The notes under the pieces are model-generated. The model was not told where the DNA came from. It worked only from the letters and a program-made list of their open reading frames with translations, and did not search any database. The translations under genes were made by a program, and so were the position numbers. A stretch of 64,000 nt of DNA, taken from the IMG/VR virus record IMGVR_UViG_3300015371_000026, positions 3,392 through 67,391 of that record. One strand, written 5' to 3'. Every line of letters begins with the position of its first letter. Within the stretch, counting starts at the first letter, position 1. Below are positions 14,160-63,165 of the stretch, one piece after another. The DNA comes from a virus.

Positions 14160-14354
14160 ATGACCAAGATCTACGTACCGAAGGAATCGTTCATCACTCC
14201 TATCGTCGATGACGACGGCAACTCGCGTGAGCACAACTTTCGCGAGGGACGTACGACAGTCGAGGAAGGGCATCCGGTGATGCGCGGGCGCGAGCAGCTG
14301 TTTCGCGAGATGACGATCGACTACCCTGCGCCGCGCAAGGTCGTGAACAAGTGA
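14160..14354 (+). CDS. Small post-capsid protein
   Basis: ATG with purine-rich RBS; coupled to the next gene. Confidence 0.6.
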   Translation: MTKIYVPKESFITPIVDDDGNSREHNFREGRTTVEEGHPVMRGREQLFREMTIDYPAPRKVVNK

Positions 14355-15598
14355 AGATCCTTCTCCACTCGAACGCCCCCTGGGCGCACACCGGCTACGG
14401 CCAGCAGACCGCGCAGCTCGCGACGCGTCTGCGCGACGCCGGTCACGAGGTCGCGCTCTCGACCTTCTACGGCCTCGAGGGCGCGGAGATGGAGTGGGGC
14501 GGGATGCGTGTCTTCCCCACCGACCATACGAAGTTCGGGAAGGCGATGCTCCCGTACTACGTCGGCGAGATCGCCGGTCGTGACACCGATCCGCGCGAGG
14601 TGCTCGTGCTGACGCTGATGGACGTCTGGGCGCTCACAGCGCAGTCCCTGTCGCGTCTGCGACTGGCCAGCTGGACGCCCGTCGACCACGAGCCGATGCC
14701 GCCGCGTCTGGGCGAATACTTCGCCTCCACTGGCGCGCGCCCGATCGCGATGAGTCGATTCGGGGAGACGCAGCTGAAGGAGGCCGGGTTCGACCCGCTC
14801 TACGCGCCGCACGCTGTCGACACGAACGTGATGCGCCCGCTGGGCGGACGCGACGAGCTACGGCGCGCGCTGAAGGTGCCGGAAGACGCGTTCGTGGTCG
14901 GGATGGTCGCCAACAACAAGGGCACCGGCCCGCCGCGCAAGGCGTTCCCGCAGGTCATGCAGGCGTTCTCGATCTTTCACCGCGACCATCCCGACTCTGT
15001 GCTCTATCTCCACTCAGAGGTGTTCGGGCTCGACGCCGGTGTCAACCTGCTGGCGCTCGCGCGCATCTGCGGGATCCCTGATACGGCGCTGGCCACGACC
15101 GATCAGCTGCGTATGCATCTCGGCATTCCCGGCGAGGCGATGGCAGCTGTGTACAACGTCTTCGATGTGCTCGCGAACCCGAGCTACGGGGAGGGATTCG
15201 GAATCCCGATCATCGAGGCGCAGGCGTGTGGCGTCCCGGTGATCGTCAACGACTGCACGTCGATGCCCGAGCTGCTCGGCGCAGGATGGCTCGTCGACGG
15301 CGACGACTTCTACGACCCGCCTCACGGCGCCTGGTACAAGTGCCCGTCTGTCGCGGAGATCTACCAGGCTATTGAGCAGGCGTACGAGACGCGCGGCGAC
15401 CAGCAGCTGCGCGAGCAGGCGCGCGAGTTCGCGCTCGCGTACGACGCGGATTGCGTCTTCGCCGAGTACTGGACACCGGTGCTTGACCAGCTGGAGCTGC
15501 CGCGCGAGATCGGGCCGCTCGTGATCGCAGAGCAGAACGGGCTGAATCGCGAACAGCGGCGCGCAGCCGCGAAGCAGCGGCAGAAGCAGAAGGTGTGA
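14351..15598 (+). CDS. GT-B (family 4) glycosyltransferase
   Basis: SNAPW..TGYGQQT, RKAF, NPSYGEGFGIPIIEAQACGVPVI. Confidence 0.9.
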   Translation: MKILLHSNAPWAHTGYGQQTAQLATRLRDAGHEVALSTFYGLEGAEMEWGGMRVFPTDHTKFGKAMLPYYVGEIAGRDTDPREVLVLTLMDVWALTAQSLSRLRLASWTPVDHEPMPPRLGEYFASTGARPIAMSRFGETQLKEAGFDPLYAPHAVDTNVMRPLGGRDELRRALKVPEDAFVVGMVANNKGTGPPRKAFPQVMQAFSIFHRDHPDSVLYLHSEVFGLDAGVNLLALARICGIPDTALATTDQLRMHLGIPGEAMAAVYNVFDVLANPSYGEGFGIPIIEAQACGVPVIVNDCTSMPELLGAGWLVDGDDFYDPPHGAWYKCPSVAEIYQAIEQAYETRGDQQLREQAREFALAYDADCVFAEYWTPVLDQLELPREIGPLVIAEQNGLNREQRRAAAKQRQKQKV

Positions 15599-40627: not shown

Positions 40628-41086
40628 GTGGACGAAACGACCACAGACCGGCCGGAGGATGAGCAGCCCCTTCCGGACGCGCCGCCGCCGAACCCGGAGC
40701 CGGTCGAGCCGAAGGAGCCCGAGCCGAACGTCGAGCCAGCGCCGGACGAGCCGAAGGAGCCCGAGCCGAACGTCGACCCGGCGCCGGACGACCAGCAGCC
40801 TAAAGCGTCTTCGGGCGTCGAGCCGCATCCCGTCCACTCAGACGCACCAGCTGCTGCGACGTCGCCGTACGACACCACCCCCGAGGGAGGGTCGCAGGCG
40901 CTTCGAGGCGTCTCGGACGCGTTCCCGGGGAACGACTCCGCGCTCGACTACGCGCGATCGCTGATGGCCGATCCGGAGATCGACGCGCCTGACGGGCTCA
41001 CGTACGACGACGCGCGCACGATCCGCGAGACTGTGCTCGGGCGGCGCGCCGTAGACCAGCTCGGGTACCCGGTCGAGTCCGTCTGA
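40628..41086 (+). CDS. Acidic Pro/Glu-repeat protein
   Basis: EPKEPEPNV(E/D)PAPD x2 (42-bp period); AAGGAG RBS. Confidence 0.6.
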   Translation: MDETTTDRPEDEQPLPDAPPPNPEPVEPKEPEPNVEPAPDEPKEPEPNVDPAPDDQQPKASSGVEPHPVHSDAPAAATSPYDTTPEGGSQALRGVSDAFPGNDSALDYARSLMADPEIDAPDGLTYDDARTIRETVLGRRAVDQLGYPVESV

Positions 41087-41092
41087 CGGCAT

Positions 41093-41135
41093 AAAAAAAG
41101 GCGCCCCCAGCCCGCTTTCGGGCCAGGGGCGCTTT
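41093..41135. terminator. Terminator between convergent operons
   Basis: A7-GGCGCCCC...GGGGCGC-TTT hairpin. Confidence 0.7.
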
Positions 41136-41142
41136 CCTTCGA

Positions 41143-41349
41143 TCAGGTGGTGACCTCGTCGGCATCACGCATCTTTCTCTGGATGTACTGGCGAATGTCC
41201 TCGCGCAGATACGCCTGGATCGCACGACGCGTGTGCCAGGCGATCGGAAGATCCGTGTCCTGCGCGAGTCGAACGAGCGCCTTGTGGTCGGCGTCGTCAA
41301 CGTCGGTCCGGACAGGATGCCGCTTGAGGTCTCGCTGTAGCTTCGTCAT
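41143..41349 (-). CDS. Ribbon-helix-helix DNA-binding protein
   Basis: VRTDVDDADHKALVRLA..IAWHTRRAIQAYL. Confidence 0.65.
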   Translation of the reverse strand: MTKLQRDLKRHPVRTDVDDADHKALVRLAQDTDLPIAWHTRRAIQAYLREDIRQYIQRKMRDADEVTT

Positions 41350-42330
41350 CTAGTTCTCCTTTCTGCGATGGACAGGCCTGCCGATCCAGGGCGCACCAGG
41401 CGGGCCCTTCACGTACGGTTCGATGTACGTCGCTGGTCGCGGGCTGTGTCTATGTTCTCGACACGTGCACAGCGACTCACCTCCGTCGATGTGTCGCCAG
41501 TGGCCCGAAACGAGCCAGCGAACGTGGTACGTCCGACCGGCACCAGTCTGCGGCTGCTCGCCCGCGTACGTCAGGTCGACGTAGTACAGTTTCGGCATCC
41601 GTGGTGCCCAGCGCTCGCGCTCGATCCGCTTACGCTGATGTCTCGGGAGCGTGATCTCCCGCTTCGGCACAGATCGAGCTGTGATCAGATGCGCACCGTT
41701 CACCGCTAGCTGAAGCAGCGCGTGAAGGTGCCCGTCGTGCCAGTCGCCCGATACCTTCCGCGGGCTGATGATCTCGTTCGGCGTTAGATGAAACGCCATC
41801 GTGATCATCGAGCGCGAGATAGGGACGGGCTTCTGACGTCTCTCGACGATCTCTGTGGTTCGCTGAAACGGCACGAAGATCTGCCATTCCTGACCTCTGA
41901 CGACCTCGTTGATCGCGACGCCGAGCACGTCGATCACGTCGCGTGAGCCGTCGTCGTTCTCGTCGAGCCAGCTGGTGTACATACCAGGCTGGACGCTTCC
42001 GTCGTCGTACGTGTGCTGCGTCTCGATCCAGATACGTCGAAACGGCAGCGGCGGAAACGACGGGAGCGCCGGAGGCATAGACTCGATCGCCTCGTACGTC
42101 TGCTCTTGATCGACGATGTAGTAGCTCGCTGTTCGCAGCATGGCGTATAGCCCTTCGTGCCAGCTGCTCGCCTCCTCGAGCGTCGGCACCCACATCGGGT
42201 CGAGTGCCTGGGTCACGATCCCCTCGTCGACCGGTGTTCGCTCATGCATCACCTGAAGCAGGAGATGGGCGGCGAGTAGACGCTCGCCGCCCGGCCCTGC
42301 TCCGGCAGCGGGTGCGTGTTCGCTAGCCAC
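41350..42330 (-). CDS. Conserved phage protein (VxGHWR...PYVKGP)
   Basis: RWLVSGHWR, YIEPYVKGPPGAP. Confidence 0.6.
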   Translation of the reverse strand: MASEHAPAAGAGPGGERLLAAHLLLQVMHERTPVDEGIVTQALDPMWVPTLEEASSWHEGLYAMLRTASYYIVDQEQTYEAIESMPPALPSFPPLPFRRIWIETQHTYDDGSVQPGMYTSWLDENDDGSRDVIDVLGVAINEVVRGQEWQIFVPFQRTTEIVERRQKPVPISRSMITMAFHLTPNEIISPRKVSGDWHDGHLHALLQLAVNGAHLITARSVPKREITLPRHQRKRIERERWAPRMPKLYYVDLTYAGEQPQTGAGRTYHVRWLVSGHWRHIDGGESLCTCREHRHSPRPATYIEPYVKGPPGAPWIGRPVHRRKEN

Positions 42331-42856
42331 GGAGGATCACCCGCCAGATCTCGTCGAGCAGCTTCTCCTGCCAGTCATCGTCTGGTACCTCGACGAGTTC
42401 GACGAACAGCTCCATCGGGACGTCGACTGTCGTCTCGTACGCACCTTCCTCGACGTCGCGATCCACCAGCTTGAGATGACCGTGGCAGCGCATGTGCGCG
42501 GCGACGTCCTCTCCCTGCGCGTGCCGATGGATCAGCACTGGCCGCAGGATGTGAAACCCGAACGGGTCGAGTCGCCTGATCGTGTCCGTTTTGAGCTGGC
42601 GGTTGGTAGTCACGCCCTTCCGCCAGAGCCGCGATCGCGATCAGCTCGCGCGTATTCGCGACGCGCGGGCTCAGCGACAGTCCCATTGAGATGTCGTTGG
42701 ACTGTTGTTCGTGCGCTTCTCGTTGCTCCGGCGTTAGGTCGCGCAGGTAGCGCAGTGCCTGCTGTGACTGCTCGATCTGCTCGTCGTCGAGACCGCTGTC
42801 GCGCAGTATCTCGATGAACTCCGGGTCGTCGGGATCTTCGTCGTGGTCGTATGGGT

Positions 42857-43300
42857 TCATCTCCTCACCTCCGATCTCTCGATCTGACCATCCGGCCAGA
42901 CGATCGCGTGCTCGCGCCCGACCTTGCGCGCGTACCTGATCGTCGCCCACGTCCCCGAGCGCTGCTCCTCGCGATCGAGATGCGGCGTCGTGAACAGAAC
43001 GTGGCAGACGTCGACGATGTCGCGGTTACGGTCGAGCGGCGGAAGCCCGCGCAGGACTCGCTCGCCCTCGATCTTCTCCGCGATCTTGCGCGGGTCGACA
43101 CCGACGGCTGGATGGCGCACCAGCTTGTACCCGAGCCAGCGCGCCAGCGCAGCCGCCTCTTGGTCGGCCCCGACACACCCGCCGTGGTGGAACTCGTCCA
43201 CGTACGGCGTGACGAGCGTGTCGTCGAGCAGCGTGACGAGCGCCTGTCGTTGGGCATGGGTCGTGCCCGCGCTCGTCCCGCTGAAGCCGACGATGACCAT
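42857..43300 (-). CDS. SLOG/DprA-like nucleotide-binding protein
   Basis: VGFSGT, FHHGGCVGAD, RNRDIV, SGTWATIRYA. Confidence 0.7.
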   Translation of the reverse strand: MVIVGFSGTSAGTTHAQRQALVTLLDDTLVTPYVDEFHHGGCVGADQEAAALARWLGYKLVRHPAVGVDPRKIAEKIEGERVLRGLPPLDRNRDIVDVCHVLFTTPHLDREEQRSGTWATIRYARKVGREHAIVWPDGQIERSEVRR

Positions 43301-43301
43301 G

Positions 43302-43502
43302 TCAGCTCACCTCCACCCAGCGCATGCACGTCTGAAGGAGATGGTCGTAGTCGCCGTTCGTGGCCTCGGCCATGAACTCGTCACGCTCATCCTTCGACAC
43401 ACCGGCGCGCCTCATCGCACCGGTGACGTTCCCGAGAATCGCGAACGCGTTCCCGTCTTTGCCGCTCAGCTGCACCTCGATCTCTGGGTGCCTGACTTCC
43501 AT
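43302..43502 (-). CDS. Conserved small phage protein
   Basis: LSGKDGNAFAILG..ATNGDYDHLL. Confidence 0.7.
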   Translation of the reverse strand: MEVRHPEIEVQLSGKDGNAFAILGNVTGAMRRAGVSKDERDEFMAEATNGDYDHLLQTCMRWVEVS

Positions 43503-43738
43503 CGTTCTCACCTCTTTCTGTCGGACGTCGCGCTGATTAGCTCGACGCCTGTGTCGTACGACTGCAGCTCGCACTGGATCTGGGCCGCCTGGCGTCCTAG
43601 CTCGAACGCGTCCTCGCCCTCCAGCTCGTAGACGATCGTCCCCTCGTGATCCATCGAGACGATGCGCCCATAGCCGGTAAGTACCTGCGCAAGCTGCTGG
43701 ATCGTGTTGCTCTTGACCAGCACAGTTCGCTTCATAGC

Positions 43739-44203
43739 TCACCTCTTTCTGTTCGCGACGCCGTACTGCCAAGCGCGTCGCATCATCGTGTACCCGATCG
43801 GGCCCGCGACCTGTGAACGATCAGCGATCGCGGTGCCCAGATGAAGCAGCTGACTGTCGTCGATCCTCGACAGCGAGCCTGCGAGCGTTTTCCCGAGCGT
43901 CCCGTTCAGCATCTGCTCGCCGTCAGACGAGAGACGCCACGTGCCCTGGTCGCGCTCGTGTCGCTCGACGACGCCGAAGCGCCGCATCCACGACAATCTG
44001 ACGCCGACGCAGCGCACCGCGTGGACGCGCCGGTCGTCGTCAGACATGATCCCGCTTCCGAACGCCTTGACGGCGACGTCTAGGTTGGTCGCCCAGCCGT
44101 CACCGTCGCCGACGTCGACGATCAGCCCGAGCAGATCGCGGTCGCTGTACGCCGCGAGCCGCAGACTTTCCTCTCGACGCACTCGTCTAGGACTTCGCGC
44201 CAT
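43739..44203 (-). CDS. Winged-helix-like protein
   Basis: RLSWMRRFGVVER..WRLS; array RBS. Confidence 0.5.
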   Translation of the reverse strand: MARSPRRVRREESLRLAAYSDRDLLGLIVDVGDGDGWATNLDVAVKAFGSGIMSDDDRRVHAVRCVGVRLSWMRRFGVVERHERDQGTWRLSSDGEQMLNGTLGKTLAGSLSRIDDSQLLHLGTAIADRSQVAGPIGYTMMRRAWQYGVANRKR

Positions 44204-44660
44204 TGCTGCTCACCTCCTCGTTTGTCCAGAGCGCGTACAGCGGGCGCGTGCCGCGTACACCCTCCATCACACCCGCGCGACGGATCACGTTCCCGTCAGC
44301 GAGCGCTGCTAGCGCACGCCCGACCGATGACGACCCAAGTGCTGGGACGTCTTCTGCGATCCGGCTCGTCCCCGCTGGTTCACCGATCCTGCGCATCGCA
44401 GCGAGGATCTCGTCGACACGCTCGTCGGCGATCCCATCGACTGGGTAGCGCTTCTCTTTGCGCCGTCTCGGCTTCTCACGCTTCGGCTTCTCGCGCGGCG
44501 TCTTCGGCTCTGCGCTTCGCAGCACAGCGTCGAGTGTCTTCATCTGCTCGCGCTTCTCAACGATCTCGCGCTGCAGCACGTCGATCTCGCGTTCGAGCTG
44601 TGCTCGCGCCTCGCGTAGAGGCGCGATCGTCTGCTCGATGATCTGCTGTACGTCTGTCAT
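44187..44660 (-). CDS. Coiled-coil + winged-helix protein
   Basis: N-terminal heptads; SSVGRALAALA.GNVIRR. Confidence 0.55.
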   Translation of the reverse strand: MTDVQQIIEQTIAPLREARAQLEREIDVLQREIVEKREQMKTLDAVLRSAEPKTPREKPKREKPRRRKEKRYPVDGIADERVDEILAAMRRIGEPAGTSRIAEDVPALGSSSVGRALAALADGNVIRRAGVMEGVRGTRPLYALWTNEEVSSNGAKS

Positions 44661-44874
44661 GCCCTCACCTCCGTATCGACGATCTCGCGCATCTTGACGA
44701 CGAGCAGCTTCAGCTCGTCTTCGACAGCCTTGTGATAGTCGGCTCGTCTGAACATCTCGGATCGTCCGATCGGATAATCCGAGTCGTTCGCTTGACGAAC
44801 GAGTCTCGCCGCTTGCTGGCTGTGCACGTGTCGTCGCTCATCGACGACTGTGATCAGCATGTCAGCTAGCTCGC

Positions 44875-45579
44875 TCATGTCACTCCCACCTCCTCGGGTT
44901 CGTCGAGCGTCCGGTCTTCACCGGCGCGCACGACCTTGACCAGCCGGAGCCCGCGCTCCTCGAGCGCGTCCAGCTCCTCCTCGCTCTCGTCGCCCTTGAC
45001 GACGTACTCGACCGCCGTCGGCATGAAGAACGTGATCACGCCGGGTGACTCGGTGTAGCCAGTGCCTCTGCATGCCTCGCAAGCGGGGTCTGGCAGCTCT
45101 GCACCGAACTCGTGGCGCGGGCAGTGACACGTCTGCCGGATCGCTTTCGGATGCGCGAGCGCCACCCAGTGCTCGCCGACCTTGAAGCCGCGCGGCACCG
45201 CCGGGATGCGGCGCGAGACGCCCATGCGGGCAGCCTCGTCCATGAACTCGCGCGGCGTCTTGTAGTACGCCTCGCCGATCCAGATCAGACCAGCACGCTC
45301 GCCCTCGCTCCACTTCTCGCGAAGCATCGGGCCGCCCAGCGGGCAGATCTGGTTGTGTAGCGACGAGCCGTGATCACGCGGCCCAAGCAGCGGATCCGGC
45401 AGGATCCACGTGAAGCCGCGCGACTGCTTCACTCCCTCGCCGCACGTCGGACAGACATGCAGCGGGATCGGCAGCAGCTCGCACGGCTCGCTCAGCTTCC
45501 CGCTGACCATGTACAAGCCGCCGCCCTTGCGATACCCGCACCCGCGAGCACCTTCGACCGATGTGTGTACGGTCGCCAT
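44875..45579 (-). CDS. Cys-rich conserved phage protein
   Basis: RGCGYRKGGGLY, several CxxC, GVSRRI. Confidence 0.65.
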   Translation of the reverse strand: MATVHTSVEGARGCGYRKGGGLYMVSGKLSEPCELLPIPLHVCPTCGEGVKQSRGFTWILPDPLLGPRDHGSSLHNQICPLGGPMLREKWSEGERAGLIWIGEAYYKTPREFMDEAARMGVSRRIPAVPRGFKVGEHWVALAHPKAIRQTCHCPRHEFGAELPDPACEACRGTGYTESPGVITFFMPTAVEYVVKGDESEEELDALEERGLRLVKVVRAGEDRTLDEPEEVGVT

Positions 45580-46215
45580 CTAGCTCACCTCCATGTATGC
45601 GTTCCATCTGTCGATCGGGATTGCTGCTTTCTGACCCGCACGTGCAAGCGCTTCGTACACCTCACGCACGAAGAACTCTGCAAGGTTGCGCGGTCCTTCC
45701 CGATCGAGCACTGGCAGGTTCGCGATCCAGAACATCTGCTCGACTGAGACGTCAATCCAGTCTTCGCCCCAGAACTCAGTCGGTTGACTCAGCAGTTCAG
45801 CGACGTACGACGCTGAGGCCAGTTCGAGCTGAACGAAGTTACGATCAGTCTCGAACGGGTTCGGCGGATCACCGATCAACCCGGTCTGTGCGTAGAAGCG
45901 CGACCCGCCGACGTCGTACTCGTCGTCAGTACCGATCCACAGCTCAGGCTCAGAGCTTGTGAACGCGAATCGTGTTGCGTCGAGCACGCGCCCGTCTGCG
46001 AGTCGCACCCATGAGTGCTGCTGTGCAGCGCCCGAGCCGACGTTGTCGAAGTAGCTCCCGGGCGTGATCTTCCCGAGAAAGTGGCCGCGCTCGACGCGCG
46101 CACCGTCGATCTCCTCTGCGAGCTGTGTGCTGACGCCGTGACATTGTCCCGCCCAGCGTGCACTCGAACCAGCGATCGCTTCTGCTTGCTTCATCGTTAG
46201 TTCGTCGACGTTCAT
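45580..46215 (-). CDS. Hypothetical protein, possible papain/transglutaminase-like Cys-His-Asp fold
   Basis: GQCHG..HSWV..VLDAT. Confidence 0.45.
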   Translation of the reverse strand: MNVDELTMKQAEAIAGSSARWAGQCHGVSTQLAEEIDGARVERGHFLGKITPGSYFDNVGSGAAQQHSWVRLADGRVLDATRFAFTSSEPELWIGTDDEYDVGGSRFYAQTGLIGDPPNPFETDRNFVQLELASASYVAELLSQPTEFWGEDWIDVSVEQMFWIANLPVLDREGPRNLAEFFVREVYEALARAGQKAAIPIDRWNAYMEVS

Positions 46216-46223
46216 CTCTCACC

Positions 46224-46382
46224 TCACTTCCAGAGTCGGTACCAGAAGCCCGCTCGCGCGAGAGTCCGGCCGACCACCTTGTTCTTCGCGCGTCGAGCGA
46301 TCCGCTTCGGATCACCGCTCGACAGCGCCCGCATGTCCGCGCTCAGTCGCGCGGCCTTGAACAGCGCGCTGGTCAGACTCAT
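46224..46382 (-). CDS. Small basic protein (52 aa)
   Basis: MSLTSALFKAARLSAD..GDPKRIARRAKNK; fills the gap with overlaps. Confidence 0.6.
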   Translation of the reverse strand: MSLTSALFKAARLSADMRALSSGDPKRIARRAKNKVVGRTLARAGFWYRLWK

Positions 46383-46817
46383 AGGACCGGCCAGCCTTCC
46401 ATGACGCTCGCGATGTTGGTCTTGAGCGTGTTCTGGCAGACGCCGCAGAGATCAGCGCGCAGCGTCGTCGATCCCAGCTTCAGATGGACGACGTTACTGA
46501 TACGTACGTACTCGCTCGACCCGCCAGCGTCCTTGACCTGCTCGAACTCCTCGCGCGGGATCTCTCGCCCGCACCTGTCACAGTTCATCGTCAACATCTC
46601 TGTCTCGCCTCCCAGCACCTAATGCACTCGCGCTCGCGACGATGCGGCTGACGGGCGACCAGCAACGGTCGACCGTCCTGATCCTCTACGTCGCCGCAGA
46701 CGTCACAGCGCCCGAAGTAGTACTGCGTCGCGTTGCGCTTCCACGCTTCGCGCGCAGCGAGTTCGACTGCGGACATCCTTCTCACCTCCGTACGACATTT
46801 TACCAGACGCGTACGCG

Positions 46818-47591
46818 TTAGCTGTCGGCGTACGTCTTGCGTACCTCGTCCCAGTGGACTACGCCGAGCAGTTTTCGCACCGTCTCGCGCGTCGTCGGCC
46901 AGCCGCGCTCGCGCAGCTCGTCCTTCAGCGCCAGGTACTCGTCCACGGTTGGGAAGTGGCCTAGCCTCTCGCGCGCGTACGCGAGAGCGCTGAGCGCGTC
47001 CTCGCGCGAGTAGCGTCGCCACGCGTCCGGGAGCGGGACGCCAGCCTCGCTGCAGTAGCGCTCCCAGCTCCCGAACCGGCGCACGACGATCTCGCGCATC
47101 GGTCGCAGCCCGCGTCGATCCCACTCGTTCAGCGTCGGCGTGTGCCCGAGTCGTAGCCGCTCGACGCGTAGTCGACCGAGCATCTCCTCGCGCGAGTAAC
47201 GCAGCCGGCGCTCTGAGCGTCCCGACTCTTGGTGATCGGGCTGGATGCAGTTCACCTCTCCGCACGTCGGCCAGACGTCGATCGCTCGCGACAGCTTGAT
47301 CTTCGTCTCGTGCTCGAACAGCCACCTGCGCGGGACGCGCGAGCGTCCGTCGTTACGCACGAACGTGCTCGGCCCGCGCCAGTACAGATGGAGATCCGGC
47401 CCCTGGATCGTCCAGGCGCGGAAGCGCTCCTCCTCGTTACGGATACGCGTCTCTAACGAGTCGGGGTCGCGACCCTCCGCGACTGCCTGCCTGAACCAGT
47501 GCTCGAACAGCTGCACGCGGCGCGACTGGCCCACGGTCGGGTCGAGACTCGCCGCGCGCAGCTCCTTCAGTAGATCGAGCGACGACGTCAT
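46818..47591 (-). CDS. HNH-like protein with two homing-endonuclease-associated repeats
   Basis: CGEVNCIQPDH; YSREE..LGHTPT..EW and YSRED..LGHFPT..EY. Confidence 0.7.
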   Translation of the reverse strand: MTSSLDLLKELRAASLDPTVGQSRRVQLFEHWFRQAVAEGRDPDSLETRIRNEEERFRAWTIQGPDLHLYWRGPSTFVRNDGRSRVPRRWLFEHETKIKLSRAIDVWPTCGEVNCIQPDHQESGRSERRLRYSREEMLGRLRVERLRLGHTPTLNEWDRRGLRPMREIVVRRFGSWERYCSEAGVPLPDAWRRYSREDALSALAYARERLGHFPTVDEYLALKDELRERGWPTTRETVRKLLGVVHWDEVRKTYADS

Positions 47592-48530
47592 CGCGCGAGC
47601 CCGAGCTTGTCCAGCGCGCGGCTCTCCAGCTCCGCGCGCAGCTCGGGCGACAGCTCTGACGGGTCGCCGTACAGGTAGCCGAGCGAACTCTGCTCGCCGC
47701 ACGTCTCGACGGACGTATGGGAGAGGTACCAGTCCAGCGGGCTCTCGACCTCGAGCGTCCTCAGCAGATGAAACACCGAGTAGCTCATCTTCGGGTACTC
47801 GTCGCCGCACATGCGCTGGCGTAGCTCGGCGTTGTACGTCTCTGGCGTGAAGCCGTACTCGGCGAGCACGCGCAGCTTCCAGATCTGATGCGACCGCTCG
47901 ATCAGCGGACCGCAGTCTGCGTCGTAGCCCATCGCGTCGTACGGATCGGGCTGCGTCTCAGCCAGCCAGATTCGGCTAGCCGCCTTGCTCAGATTGTCGG
48001 TAGCACCGAACATCTGACCTCACCTCCTGGTTCGAGTACGCGGATGCGCACTGAGCAACGCCCCACCGCAGGAAGGGCGCTACTCGCTACGTGACCGCGG
48101 TCACAGCTTCGTTCAGCAGCCAGCTCGACGCTCAGCCGCCTGTTCTGCCCACATGTCGTGCATGTCGCGCGCGTCTTCTTCCGAGAGGATTCTCGACGGG
48201 TCGACGCGCGAGAGATCGGGACGACCGCACTTCGGGCACAGCCCGCGGTTCGCCATGTCGCGCTCCATCGTGTGCATCAGCGACGCGTGGTCCTCGTCGT
48301 CGATGATGTTCTCCTGCAGCCACTCGCTATCGAACACGAGTCCCTCGCGCGACGAGCGACCGTCGTCGATCCGGTTATACAGATCCCAGAGCTGGTCGTC
48401 GTAGTCGGCGAACCCGAACAGCTGGCCGCAGCCGCTGCACGGTGTTCCGTGATCGAGGTCTCCGCCGGTTTCGAGCAGCCGTGCGTTGTACCGCTCCTCC
48501 TCGTAGTCGCGCTGTTCGTCGTTGTCCATC

Positions 48531-49058
48531 TCACCTCACTCCTTCCGCCAGCAGCGGGTCGACCGCCGTGGCCGTGTACATCGGACGATACGTCCCGACC
48601 GGCGCGGCGACGCCGATCGGCCCGACCACCATCTCGTACTGGGCCTGTGCCTGCGCTGCGCTCATGCTCCAGTACGTTCGCAGCGACCAGCGCAGCATGA
48701 CGACCGACCCGAGGTCGGCGTTCTGCTCGTCGTGCTCGTTGAACGCCACGTGCCAGAACTCGTGGTACAAGACGCGCGCTGCCGTCGCCCAGGACAACTG
48801 CATGCGCGGGTCGATGTCACCTGGCTTCCCGTGAAGCAGAAGATCAGCCGCCCATCCCGCGAGCGTGATTCCCTGCTTCCGGTCGCCTGCGTACGCGCAG
48901 CTGTTGTCGTAGCTCCACGTGTACACGGGCATGTCCAGCGGCAGTTTCGCTTCGAGCGCGGGCGACTCGACGCGCCCGTACTCATCTGCGTGTGCAGCCT
49001 GTACGCCGCCAGCGAGTGCGAGCGCGACGACGCAGCCGATGACGAGTAGCTTCGTCAT
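48531..49058 (-). CDS. Secreted HExxH protein
   Basis: Signal peptide ending AAHA; VLYHEFWH..E..AD. Confidence 0.55.
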   Translation of the reverse strand: MTKLLVIGCVVALALAGGVQAAHADEYGRVESPALEAKLPLDMPVYTWSYDNSCAYAGDRKQGITLAGWAADLLLHGKPGDIDPRMQLSWATAARVLYHEFWHVAFNEHDEQNADLGSVVMLRWSLRTYWSMSAAQAQAQYEMVVGPIGVAAPVGTYRPMYTATAVDPLLAEGVR

Positions 49059-49078
49059 CTCTCTCACCTCTTCCCTTC

Positions 49079-49143
49079 GGACTCATCGGTGCGGCCAAGT
49101 AGCCGCAGACGCGCGAACGTCTCAGCGCTCGCGCGTTTCGTCC
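49079..49143 (-). ncRNA. Hammerhead ribozyme, type II (CCGAUGA core variant)
   Basis: GGAC GAA ACGCGCGAGCG cugaga CGUUCGCGCGU C UGCGGC uacuug GCCGCA CCGAUGA GUCC; intergenic. Confidence 0.8.
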
Positions 49144-49958
49144 TTAGTAGTCCTCGTCCCAGCGCTCGCCCGCGTAGAGCGGGTCGAAGTCGCTCGGCTG
49201 GAGAACCGGATACCGCTCGTTGATCCGCTCTTGCTCGTCCAGGCGCTCGTCCCAGTGCTTGTCGCATCGCGGGAACTGGCGACCGGTCGGCGACAGCGCC
49301 ATCCTGTACTCGACGGCGCCCTCGCAGCCCTCCGGACCGTCCAGGCATCTCAGCTGCTCATCCATCTCAGCTCACCTCCTCCGCTTCGTCCTCGTCGATC
49401 TCTCCCATGTCGAGCAGCATCGCTGCCGCCTCGTGGACGTCGTCGGCGAGACCGCCCTCGACGAGCGCGTCCGCCTTCTCCTGCGGGGTCATGTCGTCCC
49501 CGTACGCCATCGCTCTCACCTCTCCTCGGGCGGGACGTACTCGTCGTCGAAGCCGTCGCGGAACCCGACAGACGCCATGCAGTCCTCGCACCACTCGGTC
49601 GGAACCGGCGCGTGTCTACGCGCCAGCGCCAGCGACTCATGGGAGCAGACCGCGCCGTGCTCGACGCAGATCGTCTCCCACCTGTTCCACGCGATTCCCT
49701 GTTCACGCGCCTCGGCCCGCTCGAAGTCGTCGACTCCGCGGTCGACGATCTGGACGAGTGTGCCAGTCTCGCGGGCGCGTCTCTCTTGAACTAGCCGCTC
49801 CATCGCTCTCACCTCTCTCGTTGTAAGCGTCTCCCTCGTGGCCGAAGCTACCCCCGACGAACTTATTCAGGGGGCCTCTAGGGCCCGAGCGAGCCAGCTG
49901 CTGGCAGCCGTTTTCGGCCTGCTAGGCCAGGTGCACCGACTACCCCGCGCAGCCTGGC

Positions 49959-50798
49959 TCAGTCGGCGTCGAACGTCTCGACGTAGATCGGCGAGATGCC
50001 GAAGAACCGCTCTGTCTCCTCGCGTGCCCGCTCGCTACCGCCAGGAATCCCTCTGCTGTAGCGATCGCGCTTCATGAACAGCCTGTAGCCCGTCCCGAAC
50101 CCGCTCGGTGTGAACGAGTACGCGCTCCCGCTCGCCAGCGTTCGCGTCACCTCCTGCTTGCGCTCCGGCGTCACCTCGAACGGGATACCCGGTACTCGCT
50201 CCGACTGCGCGAGACGCGCGCGCGCCTCGGGGATGCGCACCTCGAGGATCTGCTTGATCGTGTGATTCGCCTGCTCGATCACGTCAGCCTTCGCGATCTT
50301 GCTCGCAGAGAGCTGACGCTTCGTGTAGACGACCTTCGTCCCCGCACCGTCGGCGGAGTCCCAGACGATCGTCGTCTCGTCGGAGTACGAGTCCTTGCGG
50401 TTCTCGCCGAACTCGCGATACCCTGGCCCCTGCGTAACTGTGCCGAGCATCTTCGACTTCCCGTGGACGACGCGATCGCCTGCGCGCGGCGCGTCGATCC
50501 ACTTGCGCGGGTTGTCGATGTAGAACGAGTCCTCGACGCCGTAGCGGTCGAACGTGCGCCGACCGAGCGGAGTGTCGAAGCTGACGTGCCCAGACGCGAG
50601 CGAGTAGCTGTCGCGACTGTTCGGGTAGAAGTTGATGAGGATCTCGACGTCGGGCGAAGTGAGCGCCAGCACCTTGAACGCTGGCATCCAGTTCGTCTTC
50701 GGCTCGACTCGTACCTCACGCTCGAACCCTTCCGGTGTCTCGATCTCGCGCAGCATGCGCGCGACCGTCGGTACTGACTGCGTCTTCTGTGCTGCCAT
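49959..50798 (-). CDS. Hypothetical protein
   Basis: ATG 50798 with array RBS; C-terminal FTPSGFGTGY. Confidence 0.6.
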   Translation of the reverse strand: MAAQKTQSVPTVARMLREIETPEGFEREVRVEPKTNWMPAFKVLALTSPDVEILINFYPNSRDSYSLASGHVSFDTPLGRRTFDRYGVEDSFYIDNPRKWIDAPRAGDRVVHGKSKMLGTVTQGPGYREFGENRKDSYSDETTIVWDSADGAGTKVVYTKRQLSASKIAKADVIEQANHTIKQILEVRIPEARARLAQSERVPGIPFEVTPERKQEVTRTLASGSAYSFTPSGFGTGYRLFMKRDRYSRGIPGGSERAREETERFFGISPIYVETFDAD

Positions 50799-51595
50799 CG
50801 TGCTCACCTCCAGCTTTCTGCGTACTCGCGCGGGTAGCACCACTTCGCCGCCGCCCACGCGTAGTCGCTGATGACTTCGGCCTCAAGATGAGACCACTTC
50901 GGGTCTGCAAGCAGCTCGTCGAGCATCGCGTCTTTCGCAGCTTCGAGATCACCCGCCCGACGACCGATGTCGAGTAGACGCTCGCGATCGCCACGGTCAA
51001 GCTTCACGTATGTCGGCAACTTCGCCATCGCTCACCTCACTCTGTCGTGGTAGTAGACGTTCCAGCCGTCCCAGCGCACGCGGCCGTCCGTCGCCTTCTC
51101 GACTCGCCGCAGCACCTTGCGCGCAGCGTCCATCTCGCTGTACTCCGGCTCGTCGGCGTTCGCGCCCAGGCACCACATCGCGTACTCGGCCAGCACGCAC
51201 GCAGCCTCGTCCGAGGGCAGCTCCAGCCGTAGGCTGTAGCCGCGCCCTCTCGTGATCCGGCGAGCCGCCAGCCAGGCGACGCGCAACTCCCGCGCGCCGC
51301 GCTCGATCTCGGGCTCGTCAGTGTACTGCTGTCCGGCCATGACGCCGGTGCCGCTGAAGTACGTCTCGAACGCTCCTGGCACGTCGATCTGCATCTCACT
51401 CACCCCTCTCCTCGTCTTCGACTTCGAGTCGAACGACCAGACACTCGCCGCGCTGGCCGTGCTCGCTCGCCTCGCGATGCAGCGTGCGCACCGCCGTCTT
51501 CATGCCCTGCTCGTCTTCCGCAGTGGCGCGATCGCCGCTGACCGAATGAACGATCACGTACATCGTGCTCACCTCCCTGTTGCTCGTCTTCCAGA

Positions 51596-51642
51596 TGACC
51601 CCCGATCGGAGTCGAACCGATCGTTGTCGAACCGTCGGGGTC
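51596..51642 (-). ncRNA. tRNA-like minihelix (acceptor-like stem + T arm)
   Basis: GACCCC..CGAUCGG UUCGACU CCGAUCG GGGGUC A; intergenic. Confidence 0.45.
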
Positions 51643-54160
51643 GCTGCGAGCGACTAGCGCTCGCTTTCCTCAAGCTGCTGGATCTCCGCGTGCGTCTCGC
51701 GCAGCTCAGCTGCCTTGCGCTCGAACTCGTCTGCGATCGTCAGCAGGTTGTCCCCGTTGATCTCCCAGCCGAGATCTTCGCGCCAGTTGCCGCGACGCAG
51801 TACGACGATCGCCTGGCCCATGACTGTCTCGCTCAGCGTCATCGCGATCACTGCTCCTTTACGACGACGTGGAACTGTCGCCCGTCGCGCAGATGAACGA
51901 CGAACCCGCTATCGCGAGTCATCCACGTTCCGCCCGCGTAGTTCTCGGTCGTCGCCTCTTCCAGCTCGTCGACGTCGATCGAGCTGTCGACGTCCTCGGG
52001 ATGCCCGATCGCCTTGTCGACGACCTCCTGCAGAAACATCGCGAACTCGACCTCGGTGAGCGTCTGCTCGTCCTCGTCGGGCTCGTCTTCGCGTGAGTAG
52101 AAGTCGTACATCGCTCTCACCTCTCCGGAATGTTGTACTGGACGTTGAACTCGTACGTCGCGCGCGCCTCTGTTAGCTCGACGCGTGACGCGATCCACAC
52201 CATCTGATCGGTGCGCGTGTTGATCTCGACGAAGTACCGATACCCGGCGGCGACGACCGTCGTGATCTCGCCAGCGTCGGGCTGATCTTTCCAGTCCCAG
52301 ACGATCGGGACGATGTCGATTCGCTCGTTCATCTCAGCTCACCTCGCCTGGGTAACCGTCGGCGACGCAGCTCGGGCAGACGGGTCCGTACTCGTCGACG
52401 CTCCACTGGCCGCACTTGCAAAGGCCAGCCTGCTCGTTCAAGCCGACGGCGATCTTCGACGCCAGCTCGACCATCTTGGCGTAGCGCGCGGCCGCGACCG
52501 GCGAGACGCTTCCGTGCGCCTGCCAGTTCACCTCTGCGCCCTTCAGCTCTCCGCCGAAGCGCTCCTCTGGCTTCCAGATCTCGACCTTCGCCAGCGGTGT
52601 CGCGGGCTGCTCGTTCGGCCACAGCTCCAGCGAGTAGTGGCTTCCGTCCTCGATCTTGTACAGCGTCGTGTTCTCGTCCTTACTGATGACGATTAGCTCC
52701 TTCATCGTTCCTCACCTCCCTGCGCGCTCGCGCGCGCGTCGACTTTTGTTGTGCGTCTCTCGCACCGGGCCGCTCCGGTCAGAGCCGGAGTCGACCGCTA
52801 CGGCCGCAGTCATCGCAGACTTCCGCGCCGTAGCTCGACCAGCTCGAACTGGTCGAGATCGTCTCTACTGGCGTAGTGGAGCGCGAGCGTGTCGCGACCG
52901 CGCTGGATCGCCTCGACGTACGTTTGCGCGATCACGTCTGTTGTACGTCCGAACCCCATGCGCTCGTGGCGCCAGGCCAGCTTCCATTCGTAGGCTCGGT
53001 CTCTCATCGTTCTCACCTCTCCTCTGCGATGTCGACGAAGTCGACGCCGCTTCCGTAGGGATAGCCGTTGACGACGCTCGCGTGAACAAGCTCGTCGCCG
53101 CGCGTGTACAGCGTGACGCGGAGCCCGTTCGTCGCGAGCGCTCGCGCGTTCTCTGCCACGACCGCGTTCGCGCGCTTCGAGTACAGGATCGCGTAGGCGT
53201 GACCGAACCCGTGAAGACCGTCGCCGTGGGTACGAACGCCGAAGTCCTTGTAGCAGCCTGCTCGACGATCGCTGCGCCAACGAAGTCCGAGCGCGCTCAG
53301 CTCGTCGCGGATCTTCTGTGCCTGGAGCGTGATCATCGCTCTCACCTCTCGTCGTAGTAGTGGTCGACCATCTCGACGTGCACGGGCGTCTCCACTCGCG
53401 GGAACGCCTCCGCCCAGGAGACGACTCGCCCGTCCGGCATCCGGACGGCGTTGATCGCGACGTCGTACGCCGCGTCGATGTGCTGCTTCTTCTTCATCGT
53501 TCTCACCTCGCCTCGCGCGTACGCGCGTCTACGAACAGGCGCTCTCGATCTCGAAGCGCTCGTCCTCGGTCATCGTCTTCCACACTTTCCGGATGCGCGC
53601 CTCGATCCCCGTGCGGAACTGCAGCGGGCGCGTTCGAGCCTCGAATACCAGCTTCCAGTATGTCTCGACGTTCGTCATCGTGCTCACCTCTCCTCGATCT
53701 CGTAGGACGCTGCCTTGCGACTGTCGCCACCAGCGACGTCGCGGCGCGCGTTCAGATTGCGTCGACGCAAAAGATCCTGCGCCATCAGCTCGACGTTCTC
53801 GCGCGAACTCGCGATACGAAGACGCGCGCTGCCGATCTGCTCTCCGTCCTTCGTCAGAAGTTTGATCAGGTACTTCATCGTCGCTCACCTCTCAGTCTCT
53901 CTCGTCGATCTGCTCGCCCTTGCACCGGAACTTCCAGCAGCAAAGACCCGTCAGTACGATGTACAGCTCGATAGCGATCAGAACGATCATCGCTCTCACC
54001 TCTCCTCGCGGTCGAGCAGAACGTGCAGGCTCGACCAGTTGTGCATGAAGTCGTGCGCCCAGCTTGAAACGTCCAGCAGCATAAGCGCGACGTGCGCGCC
54101 GTGGATGACGAACTCGAACATGTGTCTCGCTCCGTTCCGCAGGCGACGTTTGCGCCCGCT

Positions 54161-54219
54161 CGAAGTTTCGGCCGTGCTCTCGGCCATCGTCAGCGCGCCA
54201 GCGTTAGGCGCGGACTTCG
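54161..54219 (-). ncRNA. Hammerhead ribozyme, type III
   Basis: CGAAGU C CGCGCC uaacgcu GGCGCG CUGACGA u GGCCG agagca CGGCC GAA ACUUCG. Confidence 0.85.
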
Positions 54220-54643
54220 TTCGTAACTCATCTGCCACATTCCGAGACTCGCGCGCGTCGCGTCTTATCTACTCGGCCGACTAACGACGCGTCCTGCACT
54301 CGCTGGCGTCTTCGCCGCGCGTCACCGCTTCGTTCGTTCGCTCTCGCTCGTTCGGCTCGTCAGCCTGCCCCGGCTCTCGTGCATCCGGGCGGCTCGCTTC
54401 TCGCGCGCGAGTCTCGTACTGCGTGTGACGCTCGCTCGTCTCGCGTCGTTCGTTAGTGGCTTCGTCATCTGTTATCCGGCTTTCGTTAGTTGGGCTATCG
54501 AGGGAGTCGCGCGTTCGACTCGGAATCTCGATCCCCGCTACTCGCCGGTGACCGCGGGGGGCTGTTCTCGGGAGGTCGCCCCTTCACCTTATGGCCCTCG
54601 TCTCGCGCTCTCTCGCTCTCTCTCCTCTCTCTCGACTAGCTAC

Positions 54644-54672
54644 ATCGTACGTCTTACGTACGAATCTGTATA
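54644..54672 (-). promoter_or_regulatory. Leftward promoter with overlapping inverted repeat (operator candidate)
   Basis: TATACA-N17-TACGAT on the minus strand; TCGTACGT-ctt-ACGTACGA at 54645-54663; locally AT-rich. Confidence 0.5.
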
Positions 54673-54778
54673 CGAAGAATCTACGTATGGCTCTAAGGAA
54701 ATCTATGGAAATAGCGACTTTTTTGGACGAGGAATGGCTCGCCAAGCGCTCTCGCGTCTGGGATACTGCGTCGACTCG

Positions 54779-54970
54779 ATGAGCCAGAACGACCTCTCCA
54801 GCGAGCCCGTCTTCGAGGCGTACGTGGGCGCACCGTGCGAGCGCGAGCTACACCAAGCGCTGACGAAGATCGCGCGACGTAACGACCGCAGTCTCGCCGC
54901 AGAGATCAGACGCGCGCTACGACGACACGTCGAGCGGGAAACGCCGGAGCTACCGGCGGCAACGGCATGA
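54779..54970 (+). CDS. Arc/RHH-type regulator
   Basis: ELHQALTKIARRNDRSLAAEIRRAL. Confidence 0.7.
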   Translation: MSQNDLSSEPVFEAYVGAPCERELHQALTKIARRNDRSLAAEIRRALRRHVERETPELPAATA

Positions 54971-56115
54971 ACACAGCGACGACGAACGTCACTGACGTCT
55001 CACCCGTCGAGGCGAATCGCGTCAACGCATACGTGACGACGACGCGGCGTGGTCGCTACTACTCGTGGCGTGACGAGAACTTCTGGAGCGTCACGACGAT
55101 GATCAACGGCGGCGTTCCGAAGGGCGACGTACTCGTCAACTGGGCCAAGAAGTTCACAGCTGAGTACGCGTGCGACAACTTCGAGCAGCTGCGCCAACTT
55201 CTAACGCCGCGCGGCGGTAGTTCGCGCGACATCGACCTCGAACTCGCTGCCGCACAGATCGAGGCGATCGCGCGTCTCGTCGAGATCGCGCGTACGAGTA
55301 ACGTCGAAATCGACCGCGAACTCGCGCTGGCGCAGCTTCGCGCCGTCGCTGTCGCGCTTCAGTCGCGCGGCGGGTACGTCGACAGGGACGCAGCTGTCCA
55401 GTGGCTGAAGGACGCCGCGTATCGCGACCGCGATCGCAAAGGCCAGCTCGGCGAGAAGATCCACGACGCCATCGAGGCGTACGTGCTCGGCCAGCCGTTT
55501 CCGAAGTGGACGCCCGACATTCTCCCGCGTATGAACGCGTTCGAGCGGTTCCTGGCACGCTACGAACCGAACTACGAGATCGGGATGACAGAGGCGTCGG
55601 TGTTCAATCGGTCTCACCGCTACGCCGGTCGCGCCGACACAGTCTTCGAGATCGGACGAGGTCCGCATAAAGGACGACGCGTGCTGAACGACTACAAGTC
55701 TGGCGGGAAGGACGTCTACCCAGAAGCCGCGCTTCAGCTCGCTGCGTATCGTCGCGCAGAGTTCGTCGGTGCGCCAGACGGCTCGGAGCAGCCGATGCCG
55801 CCTGTCGACATGACTACGGTGCTCTGGCTGCCTGACGACGGCGAGTTCCGACTGGTCGAGGTCGCGACGACAGACGACGTCTTCCGCGCGTTCCTATACG
55901 TGCGCGAGAACTATCGCTGGGCTGACTCGATCAGTAAAGGTGTCGTGCTCGGAAACGTCGCGAGCGACCCGCCGCAGCCAGCATCTGACGCTGAGCGCGA
56001 ACTCGCGAACGAGCTAGCACGTTCTGATTCGCCCCACGGCGAAGAGGGGGAGGGCGAGGCCAGCGCTGGCGGCGAACAGGTCATCGCTCTCCCCCTCCCC
56101 CCGGAGAAGACGTGA
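54967..56115 (+). CDS. PD-(D/E)xK exonuclease (RecE/Cas4-like)
   Basis: SVTT, G.KIHDAIE, YAGRAD, DYKSG, QLAAY. Confidence 0.8.
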   Translation: MNTATTNVTDVSPVEANRVNAYVTTTRRGRYYSWRDENFWSVTTMINGGVPKGDVLVNWAKKFTAEYACDNFEQLRQLLTPRGGSSRDIDLELAAAQIEAIARLVEIARTSNVEIDRELALAQLRAVAVALQSRGGYVDRDAAVQWLKDAAYRDRDRKGQLGEKIHDAIEAYVLGQPFPKWTPDILPRMNAFERFLARYEPNYEIGMTEASVFNRSHRYAGRADTVFEIGRGPHKGRRVLNDYKSGGKDVYPEAALQLAAYRRAEFVGAPDGSEQPMPPVDMTTVLWLPDDGEFRLVEVATTDDVFRAFLYVRENYRWADSISKGVVLGNVASDPPQPASDAERELANELARSDSPHGEEGEGEASAGGEQVIALPLPPEKT

Positions 56116-62292: not shown

Positions 62293-62787
62293 TCGTCGCC
62301 GCTGTCGAGCGAGAGCACATCGAGGGACTGGTCGACCTGGCCGAGATGACCTCTCCCGGCGATCTAGGAGTGACCTTGATAGCGCGCAAGGTCGGGTGGA
62401 AGATCGACGTCTCGCTCCTCGTCGCTGACGTCGACGAGCGCTACGCACCGCCGCTACCTCGAAGCGCAGTGAATCTCATCGACCCTTATCGACTGTTCGG
62501 GTTCCCGGTCGTCTCGCGCGAGTGCATTACAGTCGAGCGTGCTGAGCGATGAGCGAGATGCCCGACCCGCAGCCCAGCCTCCCGTTCGGGACGACAGACG
62601 ACGACATCAACTCGCTCTGGGCGATGGACTGCCCGGCCTGCCAGGGACGCGGCTGGATGCACGCAGTCGAAGCGTACGAGTTCCGCGGCACGTACAAGGG
62701 GCGCGACAAGACCGGCGTCGTGCGCAGCGACGAGCGCGAACCATGCCCGAACTGCGGCGGCAGCGGCGGAGTGGAGATCCCGTTCTG

Positions 62788-63165
62788 ATGAAGCAAGTCC
62801 CAGGCACATGGGAGCACGGCGAACCGCCCGCACCGCAGCAGATACCGCGATCGGAAGCTGGTCCCGTGCTGCGCGGTCTCGAAGCAGAGGGCGCGCTGTA
62901 CGTGCGTCTCTATCGGATGGGCGAGTGCGCGATCGTCGTCTCGCGCGAACCGTGCGGACCAGGAGGTTCGTACGCGTGGCATCTCTCGATCTCTCACCTC
63001 GATCGACATCCGAGCTGGGACGAGATCAAAGCTGCACGCTACTGGCTGCTGCCTGACGCGCTGATGTTCGCGATGCTGCTACCGCCGAGCGAGGAGTATT
63101 TCAACCTGCCCGCGCAGGATCACGTCTTTCACATGTACGAGATCCCAGACCCGGAGATGTCGTGA
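62788..63165 (+). CDS. Conserved phage protein
   Basis: WHLSISH..RHPSWDEIK..LPP.EEY.N..FH. Confidence 0.7.
   Translation: MKQVPGTWEHGEPPAPQQIPRSEAGPVLRGLEAEGALYVRLYRMGECAIVVSREPCGPGGSYAWHLSISHLDRHPSWDEIKAARYWLLPDALMFAMLLPPSEEYFNLPAQDHVFHMYEIPDPEMS

Follow-up and report, generated by a model that had tools for sequence, protein, structure and literature searches.

When two self-cleaving ribozyme motifs bracket a block of genes on one strand of a virus genome, is the block released as an RNA of its own, and in what form would that RNA exist? The question is raised by the IMG/VR virus record IMGVR_UViG_3300015371_000026, a 67,391-bp soil-phage sequence with direct terminal repeats that is judged complete, of which bases 3392–67391 were analysed (64,000 nt; hereafter the window, to whose coordinates all positions refer). 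The window has a GC content of 65.5% and carries, on its minus strand, a leftward operon of small genes with one hammerhead motif in its 5′ leader (HH2) and a second in a spacer between two of its genes (HH1). Cleavage at both motifs is predicted to excise a minus-strand RNA of 5,105 nt (49108–54212) with about 18 small open reading frames (ORFs) of 32–279 amino acids (aa).

A sequence-only reading of this DNA had proposed two same-strand hammerheads cutting at these sites, an excised RNA of 5,105 nt carrying more than 15 small genes, 5′-hydroxyl (5′-OH) and 2′,3′-cyclic-phosphate ends, and a stabilised or circular messenger as a possible product. The paired hammerheads are borne out on the minus strand by a descriptor search, folds and shuffled controls, and the length by the distance from 54212 to 49108; the gene count is fair, standing at about 18 ORF-based gene calls, and the end groups fit known hammerhead chemistry, cleavage being predicted only. 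With respect to the product, we favour with moderate confidence, from the arrangement of motifs and genes, a reading in which the two hammerheads split a long operon mRNA into linear segments.

Architecture of the two hammerhead motifs

The descriptor covers the three topologies of the hammerhead ribozyme, Rfam clan CL00010, and requires the core CNGANGA, with an optional 1-nt insertion after A9, together with GAAA with an A15.1–U16.1 pair. The cut site must read UH, and the stems must run without a break from the core for no fewer than 4/3/3 bp. It matched the minus strand of the window twice, at HH1 and HH2, and the plus strand not at all (128 kb over both strands). Both motifs lie on the coding strand and outside ORFs.

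HH1 (49143–49079, minus strand) is a type II motif that fills the spacer between two genes and is recognised by the descriptor, by a sub-threshold alignment to RF02276 and by its fold. It reads GGAC-GAA-[ACGCGCG...CGCGCGU]-C-[UGCGGC UACUUG GCCGCA]-CCGAUGA-GUCC, with stem II open and stems III and I closed as hairpins, the stem I hairpin being 18 nt long; stems I/II/III comprise 7/4/11 bp, contiguous from the core. A GUC triplet stands before C49108, and the cut is predicted between 49108 and 49107. The GAA box and the NUH triplet are supplied by GAAA, the A15.1–U16.1 pair and GUC, and the core CCGAUGA agrees with the consensus at six of seven positions, U4 being replaced by C (U4C). Folded alone, HH1 adopts the three-way hammerhead junction as its minimum free-energy (MFE) structure (−36.0 kcal/mol, z = −2.9). 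The motif is tightly fitted between its neighbours: it begins 1 base past the stop codon of a 73-aa gene (49365→49144), and the next ATG (49058, 175-aa gene) follows 20 nt past its end, with a Shine–Dalgarno (SD)-like GAGG between.

HH2 (54219–54161, minus strand), a type III motif in the 5′ leader of the operon, is recognised by the descriptor and by its fold. It reads CGAAGU-C-[CGCGCC UAACGCU GGCGCG]-CUGACGA-U-[GGCCG AGAGCA CGGCC]-GAA-ACUUCG, with stems I/II/III of 6/5/6 bp contiguous from the core. A GUC triplet stands before C54213 and the cut is predicted between 54213 and 54212, which would make 54212 the new 5′ end; GAAA, the A15.1–U16.1 pair and GUC again provide the GAA box and the NUH triplet. 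The core CUGACGA matches the consensus at all seven positions and is followed by one extra unpaired U between A9 and stem II. Natural viroid and satellite hammerheads reportedly also carry an additional nucleotide between A9 and G10.1. The MFE structure of HH2 folded alone is the three-way hammerhead junction (−28.8 kcal/mol, z = −1.3), and its loops offer only a 3-bp GCU/AGC match for a tertiary contact. A GGAG sequence precedes the first operon ATG (54121), which lies 40 nt downstream of the motif. An 80-codon ORF from GTG 54238 overlaps HH2, and the G+C content at third codon positions (GC3) is 0.80 for this ORF as against 0.90 for the part from ATG 54121, a rise for which the upstream part is taken as non-coding.

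The two matches stand well above the chance level. Across 150 dinucleotide-preserving shuffles the mean was 0.2 matches per window (0 in 125 shuffles, 1 in 21, 2 in 3 and 3 in 1), and none of the 30 shuffled matches had summed stems of at least 17 bp, compared with 17 bp in HH2 and 22 bp in HH1; because hairpins found in real intergenic DNA are missing from the shuffles, the significance is somewhat overstated. HH1 and HH2 are very probably true hammerhead sequences. We are highly confident that at least one of them is hammerhead-derived, and nearly as confident that both are.

The leftward operon and its predicted processing

The minus-strand gene block that runs from about 54 kb to 41.1 kb appears to be read as a single transcript of ~13 kb. 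ORFs of the predicted excised RNA have high GC3 and SD-like sequences, and none of their proteins matches Pfam or PHROG save the 73-aa protein (phrog_6230); for the leftward operon as a whole, family matches are almost absent. Downstream of HH1, the distal part of the operon (41133–49107, minus strand) continues as high-GC3 ORFs without a break, one of which (46818–47591, minus strand) encodes a protein with the homing-endonuclease-associated HNH_repeat. The leftward operon ends at a strong intrinsic terminator with a 14-bp stem and a T-run (41101–41132, minus strand). This was the only U-tract terminator that a simple scan of the minus strand from 41000 to 55500 returned (41132–41101), with none between HH2 and HH1; the possibility that internal terminators keep one transcript from spanning both sites, raised by the sequence-only reading itself, finds no support in terminators of this type. 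The 5.1-kb segment does not stand as a unit by itself, the operon running on for ~8 kb past HH1 to the 41.1-kb terminator.

At its other end the operon is separated from a rightward operon by a divergent region of ~750 bp (54220–54966) that is noncoding; plus-strand ORFs within it have low GC3 (0.52–0.63). Near 54640–54700 the minus strand is AT-richer, and a purine (GA)-rich run lies near 54600–54640. Promoters or an origin may be located in the region. A standard promoter scan gave nothing on the minus strand, and a looser scan returned one weak, consensus-type candidate (54644–54677, minus strand; TATACA, 17 nt, TACGAT). If used, this candidate (54677–54644) puts HH2 ~430 nt into the leader.

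Leftward transcription probably begins within the divergent region. HH2 would then cut away the primary 5′ end, leaving an mRNA whose 5′-OH end, 92 nt ahead of the first ATG, leads directly into the hairpins of stems I and II. The cut at HH1 would divide this RNA into a proximal 5.1-kb part whose 3′ end is the stem III hairpin of 11 bp carrying a 2′,3′-cyclic phosphate, and a distal part of ~8 kb whose 5′-OH end is followed by the stem I hairpin of 7 bp and by the SD sequence of the 175-aa gene. Ends of this kind, with a 5′-OH and terminal hairpins, are poor substrates for RNase E, RNase J and 3′ exonucleases. The two parts would therefore persist as separately stabilised linear segments, with stability and translation uncoupled.

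We consider it somewhat more likely than not that both ribozymes cleave in vivo. The cut at HH1 is probably slow or partial because U4C weakens the ribozyme; a slow cut would let full-length and cut RNAs coexist, and the discrete doubly cut product may be a minor species. If both motifs cleave, the locus would exemplify, in an actinophage-like lineage of high GC content, the processing by ribozymes of an early-type operon of small, uncharacterised genes.

Core variants in other viral hammerheads

The deviations of both motifs from the core consensus were followed into other viral sequences with two patterns. Pattern A holds stem II and the core of HH1 fixed and puts no constraint on positions 4 and 7 or on the sequence and length of the two hairpins; it matched at least 120 IMG/VR loci (L009–L128). 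Pattern B requires one extra base after A9 together with the GGCC stem II of HH2, leaving stems I and III unspecified, and matched eight loci (L129–L136). The general descriptor was then run over 128 fetched loci (1.16 Mb), motifs with at least 14 summed stem pairs being counted. All survey counts that follow hold among the matches listed.

The survey recovered 269 structured hammerheads in 127 of the 128 fetched loci. Type II hammerheads with a GGAC/GUCC stem II are very abundant in the viral contigs, and of the 252 type II motifs, 238 have U at position 4, 14 have C, and none has A or G. A count confined to the pattern A loci, which is too low since one split per start position was seen, gave 122 structured matches from 80 loci; of these, 114 have U at position 4 and 8 have C (7 distinct sequences), A and G again being absent. 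Stem I hairpins of 17 or 18 nt occur in 119 of these 122 matches, as compared with 18 nt in HH1, and the tails of HH1-like family members often carry AAGGAG. On the counts for the 252 type II motifs, U4C looks like a natural variant that recurs among viral hammerheads.

The extra residue of HH2 recurs as well. All eight pattern B loci have a stem I of 6–7 bp and a stem III of 4–6 bp; their stem sequences differ and their GC content ranges from 0.39 to 0.68. The additional base is U in seven loci and A in one, and six loci read CUGACGA-U-GGCC as HH2 does.

Multiple hammerheads are frequent in the same sample. At least two occur in 55 of the 128 fetched loci, one locus having 12, and in 54 of these 55 all lie on the same strand. 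Six loci mix hammerhead types, with same-strand type III and type II motifs in L012, L058 and L063. The spacing between hammerheads has a median of 609 nt and a maximum of 4,475 nt, and is at least 4 kb in 2 of 141 cases, in loci of no more than ~15 kb that under-sample long spacings; the 5.1 kb between HH2 and HH1 lies at the long end of this range.

These data bear on the possibility that only HH2 is active and that HH1 is a decayed or near-inactive relic, in which case the leader would be trimmed and no discrete 5.1-kb species would form. U4C affects the uridine-turn position and, in the words of Perreault et al. 2011 (PMC3088659, PLoS Comput Biol 7:e1002031; cited here and below from excerpts), "considerably decreases activity in vitro". 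In line with a relic, HH1 attains just 20.7 of the 37 bits needed to reach the Rfam gathering level, C4 is confined to the small minority counted above, and a U-to-C transition is the easiest step of decay. The C4 copies elsewhere could likewise be recently decayed rather than tolerated. Against a relic stand the stems of HH1, which at 7/4/11 bp are perfect and long, as would not be expected of a drifting sequence. C4 variants in other loci also keep their stems, some of them within same-strand arrays (L055, L111, L125), and the absence of A4 and G4 variants argues against the relic in the same direction. Moreover, a viroid hammerhead with U4C retains in vivo activity sufficient for infectivity, according to Ambros & Flores 1998 as cited by Perreault et al. 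2011. We regard a decayed or near-inactive HH1 as unlikely, and retain the reading in which both motifs cleave, HH1 less efficiently.

Alternative origins of the motifs

A second alternative is that neither motif is a ribozyme, the likeness to hammerheads being a matter of chance in ordinary intergenic hairpins that act, for example, as U-less terminators, attenuators or RNase III sites. Both motifs fall under the Rfam thresholds: no family reaches its gathering level anywhere in the window, HH1 scores 20.7 bits with RF02276 (gathering 37 bits; E = 0.0032 when the virus record alone is searched), and HH2 has no match to RF00008, RF00163 or RF02276 even at E ≤ 10. A spurious RF02276 match in the same genome scores 16.7 bits, just 4 bits under HH1. 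A gathering score is a detection threshold and not a biochemical criterion. Over the whole window at E ≤ 10, Rfam returned just four weak, unrelated matches and no other ribozyme class.

The spurious 16.7-bit match, at 62734–62803 on the plus strand, was rejected as noise, since it shows mispaired stems, GAAC where GAAA is required and no U16.1. Its position is within coding sequence, on a TGATGA stop/start junction.

High-GC intergenic DNA is rich in hairpins, which the shuffles under-represent, and other spacers of this operon also hold stable hairpins on the minus strand, at 52706–52850 (z = −2.4), 49810–49958 (z = −1.6) and 48014–48112 (z = −2.4). These are probably what the sequence-only reading had described as tRNA-like and pseudoknot spacers; neither ARAGORN (tRNA and tmRNA) nor Rfam finds anything tRNA-like in them. 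Their possible roles include those of U-less terminators, attenuators and RNase sites. U-less terminators are common in Actinobacteria.

What distinguishes HH1 and HH2 from such hairpins is the combination of CNGANGA, GAAA, the A15.1–U16.1 pair, GUC and three uninterrupted stems at the exact spacing of a junction, which none of the 30 shuffled matches came near. Both deviations from the consensus recur in well-formed viral hammerheads, and the placement is typical of the family, either just past a stop codon and just before a ribosome-binding site or in a leader. Chance resemblance is quite improbable.

Further observations weigh against the division of the transcript by two active hammerheads, in addition to the Rfam scores, the spurious match and the published effect of U4C. 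In a 141-nt context, the MFE structure of HH2 retains stems I and II and swaps out stem III. Loop I of HH1 can form 5 bp with the SD-region tail, but across the 122 family members the helices between loop and tail are no longer than those with shuffled tails. If the hairpins at 52706–52850 and 49810–49958 are U-less terminators, some transcripts stop before HH1. The survey loci were ascertained with patterns taken from HH1 and HH2 themselves, so that the percentages derived from them are indicative and no census.

A megablast search of 48000–56000 against phages found no relative, leaving no orthologous locus for conservation or covariation; tblastn with the large terminase subunit (TerL) found none either, nor did a search for related loci by way of the 178-aa and 442-aa proteins. 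Apart from itself, the 175-aa protein retrieved a single protein, 41% identical and encoded on a 1.2-kb contig. The DNA contigs of four other runs show no difference from the window within the motifs as far as these are covered (HH1 by X2 and X4, HH2 by X2), and among sequencing runs none of RNA was found to contain the region.

Elsewhere in the segment, contigs from three other runs (X2, X4 and X7) show single-base deletions at 53557, 53560 and 53563; the net loss of 3 bases lies inside a small minus-strand ORF (~53678→53503), which makes it an in-frame strain variant.

Six loci that might have served as relatives (L032, L074, L083, L086, L099 and L103) belong to one phage lineage of 40% GC with an identical type II hammerhead. 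Four of them (L074, L083, L086 and L103) match the 382-aa exonuclease-family protein of the window at 28–32% identity, and four (L032, L086, L099 and L103) match an 854-aa protein at ~23%. As a single lineage with one identical ribozyme they are uninformative and were set aside. The Gp3-like protein has only distant matches in Streptomyces and other phages, and in cluster L mycobacteriophages the genes homologous to the 73-aa gene lie directly against the gene that follows, leaving neither spacer nor hammerhead.

Possible joining of the RNA ends

The remaining alternative is that both ribozymes cut and that a host RtcB-type ligase joins the 5,105-nt RNA, with its ~18 genes, into a circular or otherwise specially stabilised mRNA. 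The chemistry fits, hammerhead products being substrates of RtcB, and RtcB was detected in 10 of 14 control genomes, including that of Corynebacterium glutamicum; the RNAs of retrozymes, which are flanked by hammerheads, are circularised in the same manner, by tRNA ligase or RtcB (PMC7229834, cited from excerpts). If true, this would be the first ribozyme-defined circular polycistronic phage mRNA, exonuclease-proof and translatable. A less far-reaching novel possibility would be that the C4 core of HH1 has been selected as a slow setting, which would determine how much of the operon RNA stays full-length and how much is split.

The features of the locus speak against it. The 100-nt 5′ and 3′ ends of the excised RNA form a duplex of −73.1 kcal/mol, compared with −65.8 ± 8.1 kcal/mol between the 5′ end and random internal pieces, 19% of which do equally well, and the gain from cofolding is just 2.5 kcal/mol. 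The 3′ end (…CGCGCGUC) makes only two contiguous pairs with the ACUUCG strand of stem III of HH2, so no hybrid hammerhead can join the ends. HH1 and HH2 differ in type and sequence, unlike the repeats of rolling-circle RNAs and retrozymes, a search of the virus record for RtcB was negative, and the operon goes on beyond HH1. In the excerpts of Perreault et al. 2011, circular or spliced products of prophage hammerhead clusters were sought and none was detected. With no pairing of the ends beyond background, no viral RtcB and no circles in that earlier study, the circular or RtcB-joined messenger suggested by the sequence-only reading is unsupported, and we consider it very improbable.

Genome context

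The strand layout was derived from GC3-based ORF calling and strand skews. Plus-strand genes occupy 1–41 kb, the small minus-strand genes ~54.1→41.1 kb, and plus-strand genes resume from ~54.97 kb. The plus strand encodes the large terminase subunit, the portal and a glycosyltransferase; the glycosyltransferase gene, of group 1, stands among the structural genes (14351–15598, plus strand). The rightward operon opens with the exonuclease-family protein (phrog_298, 382 aa) and the Gp3-like protein.

The portal is ~46% identical to Gordonia phage portals, and the 73-aa protein (phrog_6230) belongs to a family that is also present in cluster L mycobacteriophages. On account of these two similarities, the host is likely to be actinobacterial, and the record resembles an actinobacteriophage.

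Comparison with known systems

According to the sequence-only reading, the operon could not be matched to a described phage system. However, such hammerheads were described by Perreault et al. 2011: in the excerpts of that paper, multiple prophage hammerheads flank genes or short gene blocks, their suggested role is the processing of long phage transcripts to operon- or gene-length mRNAs, and in vitro cleavage is reported for three tandem arrangements inside polycistronic fragments of ~2 kb. The idea of hammerheads that delimit phage gene blocks, and that of a circular product, both date from 2011.

The present locus shares with those clusters at least two coding-strand hammerheads in intergenic positions beside genes without known function, as well as type II architecture and rare core variants. 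Here, the two minus-strand motifs fall outside ORFs and belong to a single gene block, probably read as one transcript, which one strong terminator closes. It differs from them in its spacing of 5.1 kb with ~18 genes, in the placement of one ribozyme in the leader, in that both ribozymes are core variants, and in a lineage that looks actinobacterial.

HH2 finds its nearest counterpart in HHphage of the haloviruses HF1 and HF2, likewise a core-variant hammerhead in the 5′ leader of a phage operon of early type. As given in the excerpts of PMC3088659, HHphage precedes the first gene of an early polycistronic transcript by 13 nt, and a mapped transcript 5′ end falls within 3 nt of the cut site, in agreement with the role proposed here for HH2. 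HHphage depends on salt and carries an insertion of 2 nt near C3 and stem I, whereas HH2 has one extra U after A9 and lies 40 nt from the ATG. The position of this extra residue is reportedly shared with viroid and satellite hammerheads, the measured support being the eight viral loci described above. HH1, for its part, shares U4C with the viroid hammerhead of Ambros & Flores 1998 (as cited in the excerpts of PMC3088659), which belongs to a rolling-circle context and differs from HH1 in hammerhead type and in tertiary contacts.

With retrozyme and other viroid-like RNAs (excerpts of PMC7229834), the locus has in common two same-strand hammerheads that bracket an RNA with 5′-OH and 2′,3′-cyclic-phosphate ends. 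Retrozyme RNAs are small and their ends are held by repeated copies of one ribozyme; here, by contrast, a 5.1-kb coding segment lies between two unlike ribozymes with no pairing of the ends.

If the two motifs cleave, the Rfam thresholds miss hammerheads of this kind when a tolerated core variant is present, and annotation pipelines and descriptors could allow for U4C (~5% of the type II motifs among the matches listed) and for an extra U after A9. The arrangement is one already described for phages, and no new kind of system.

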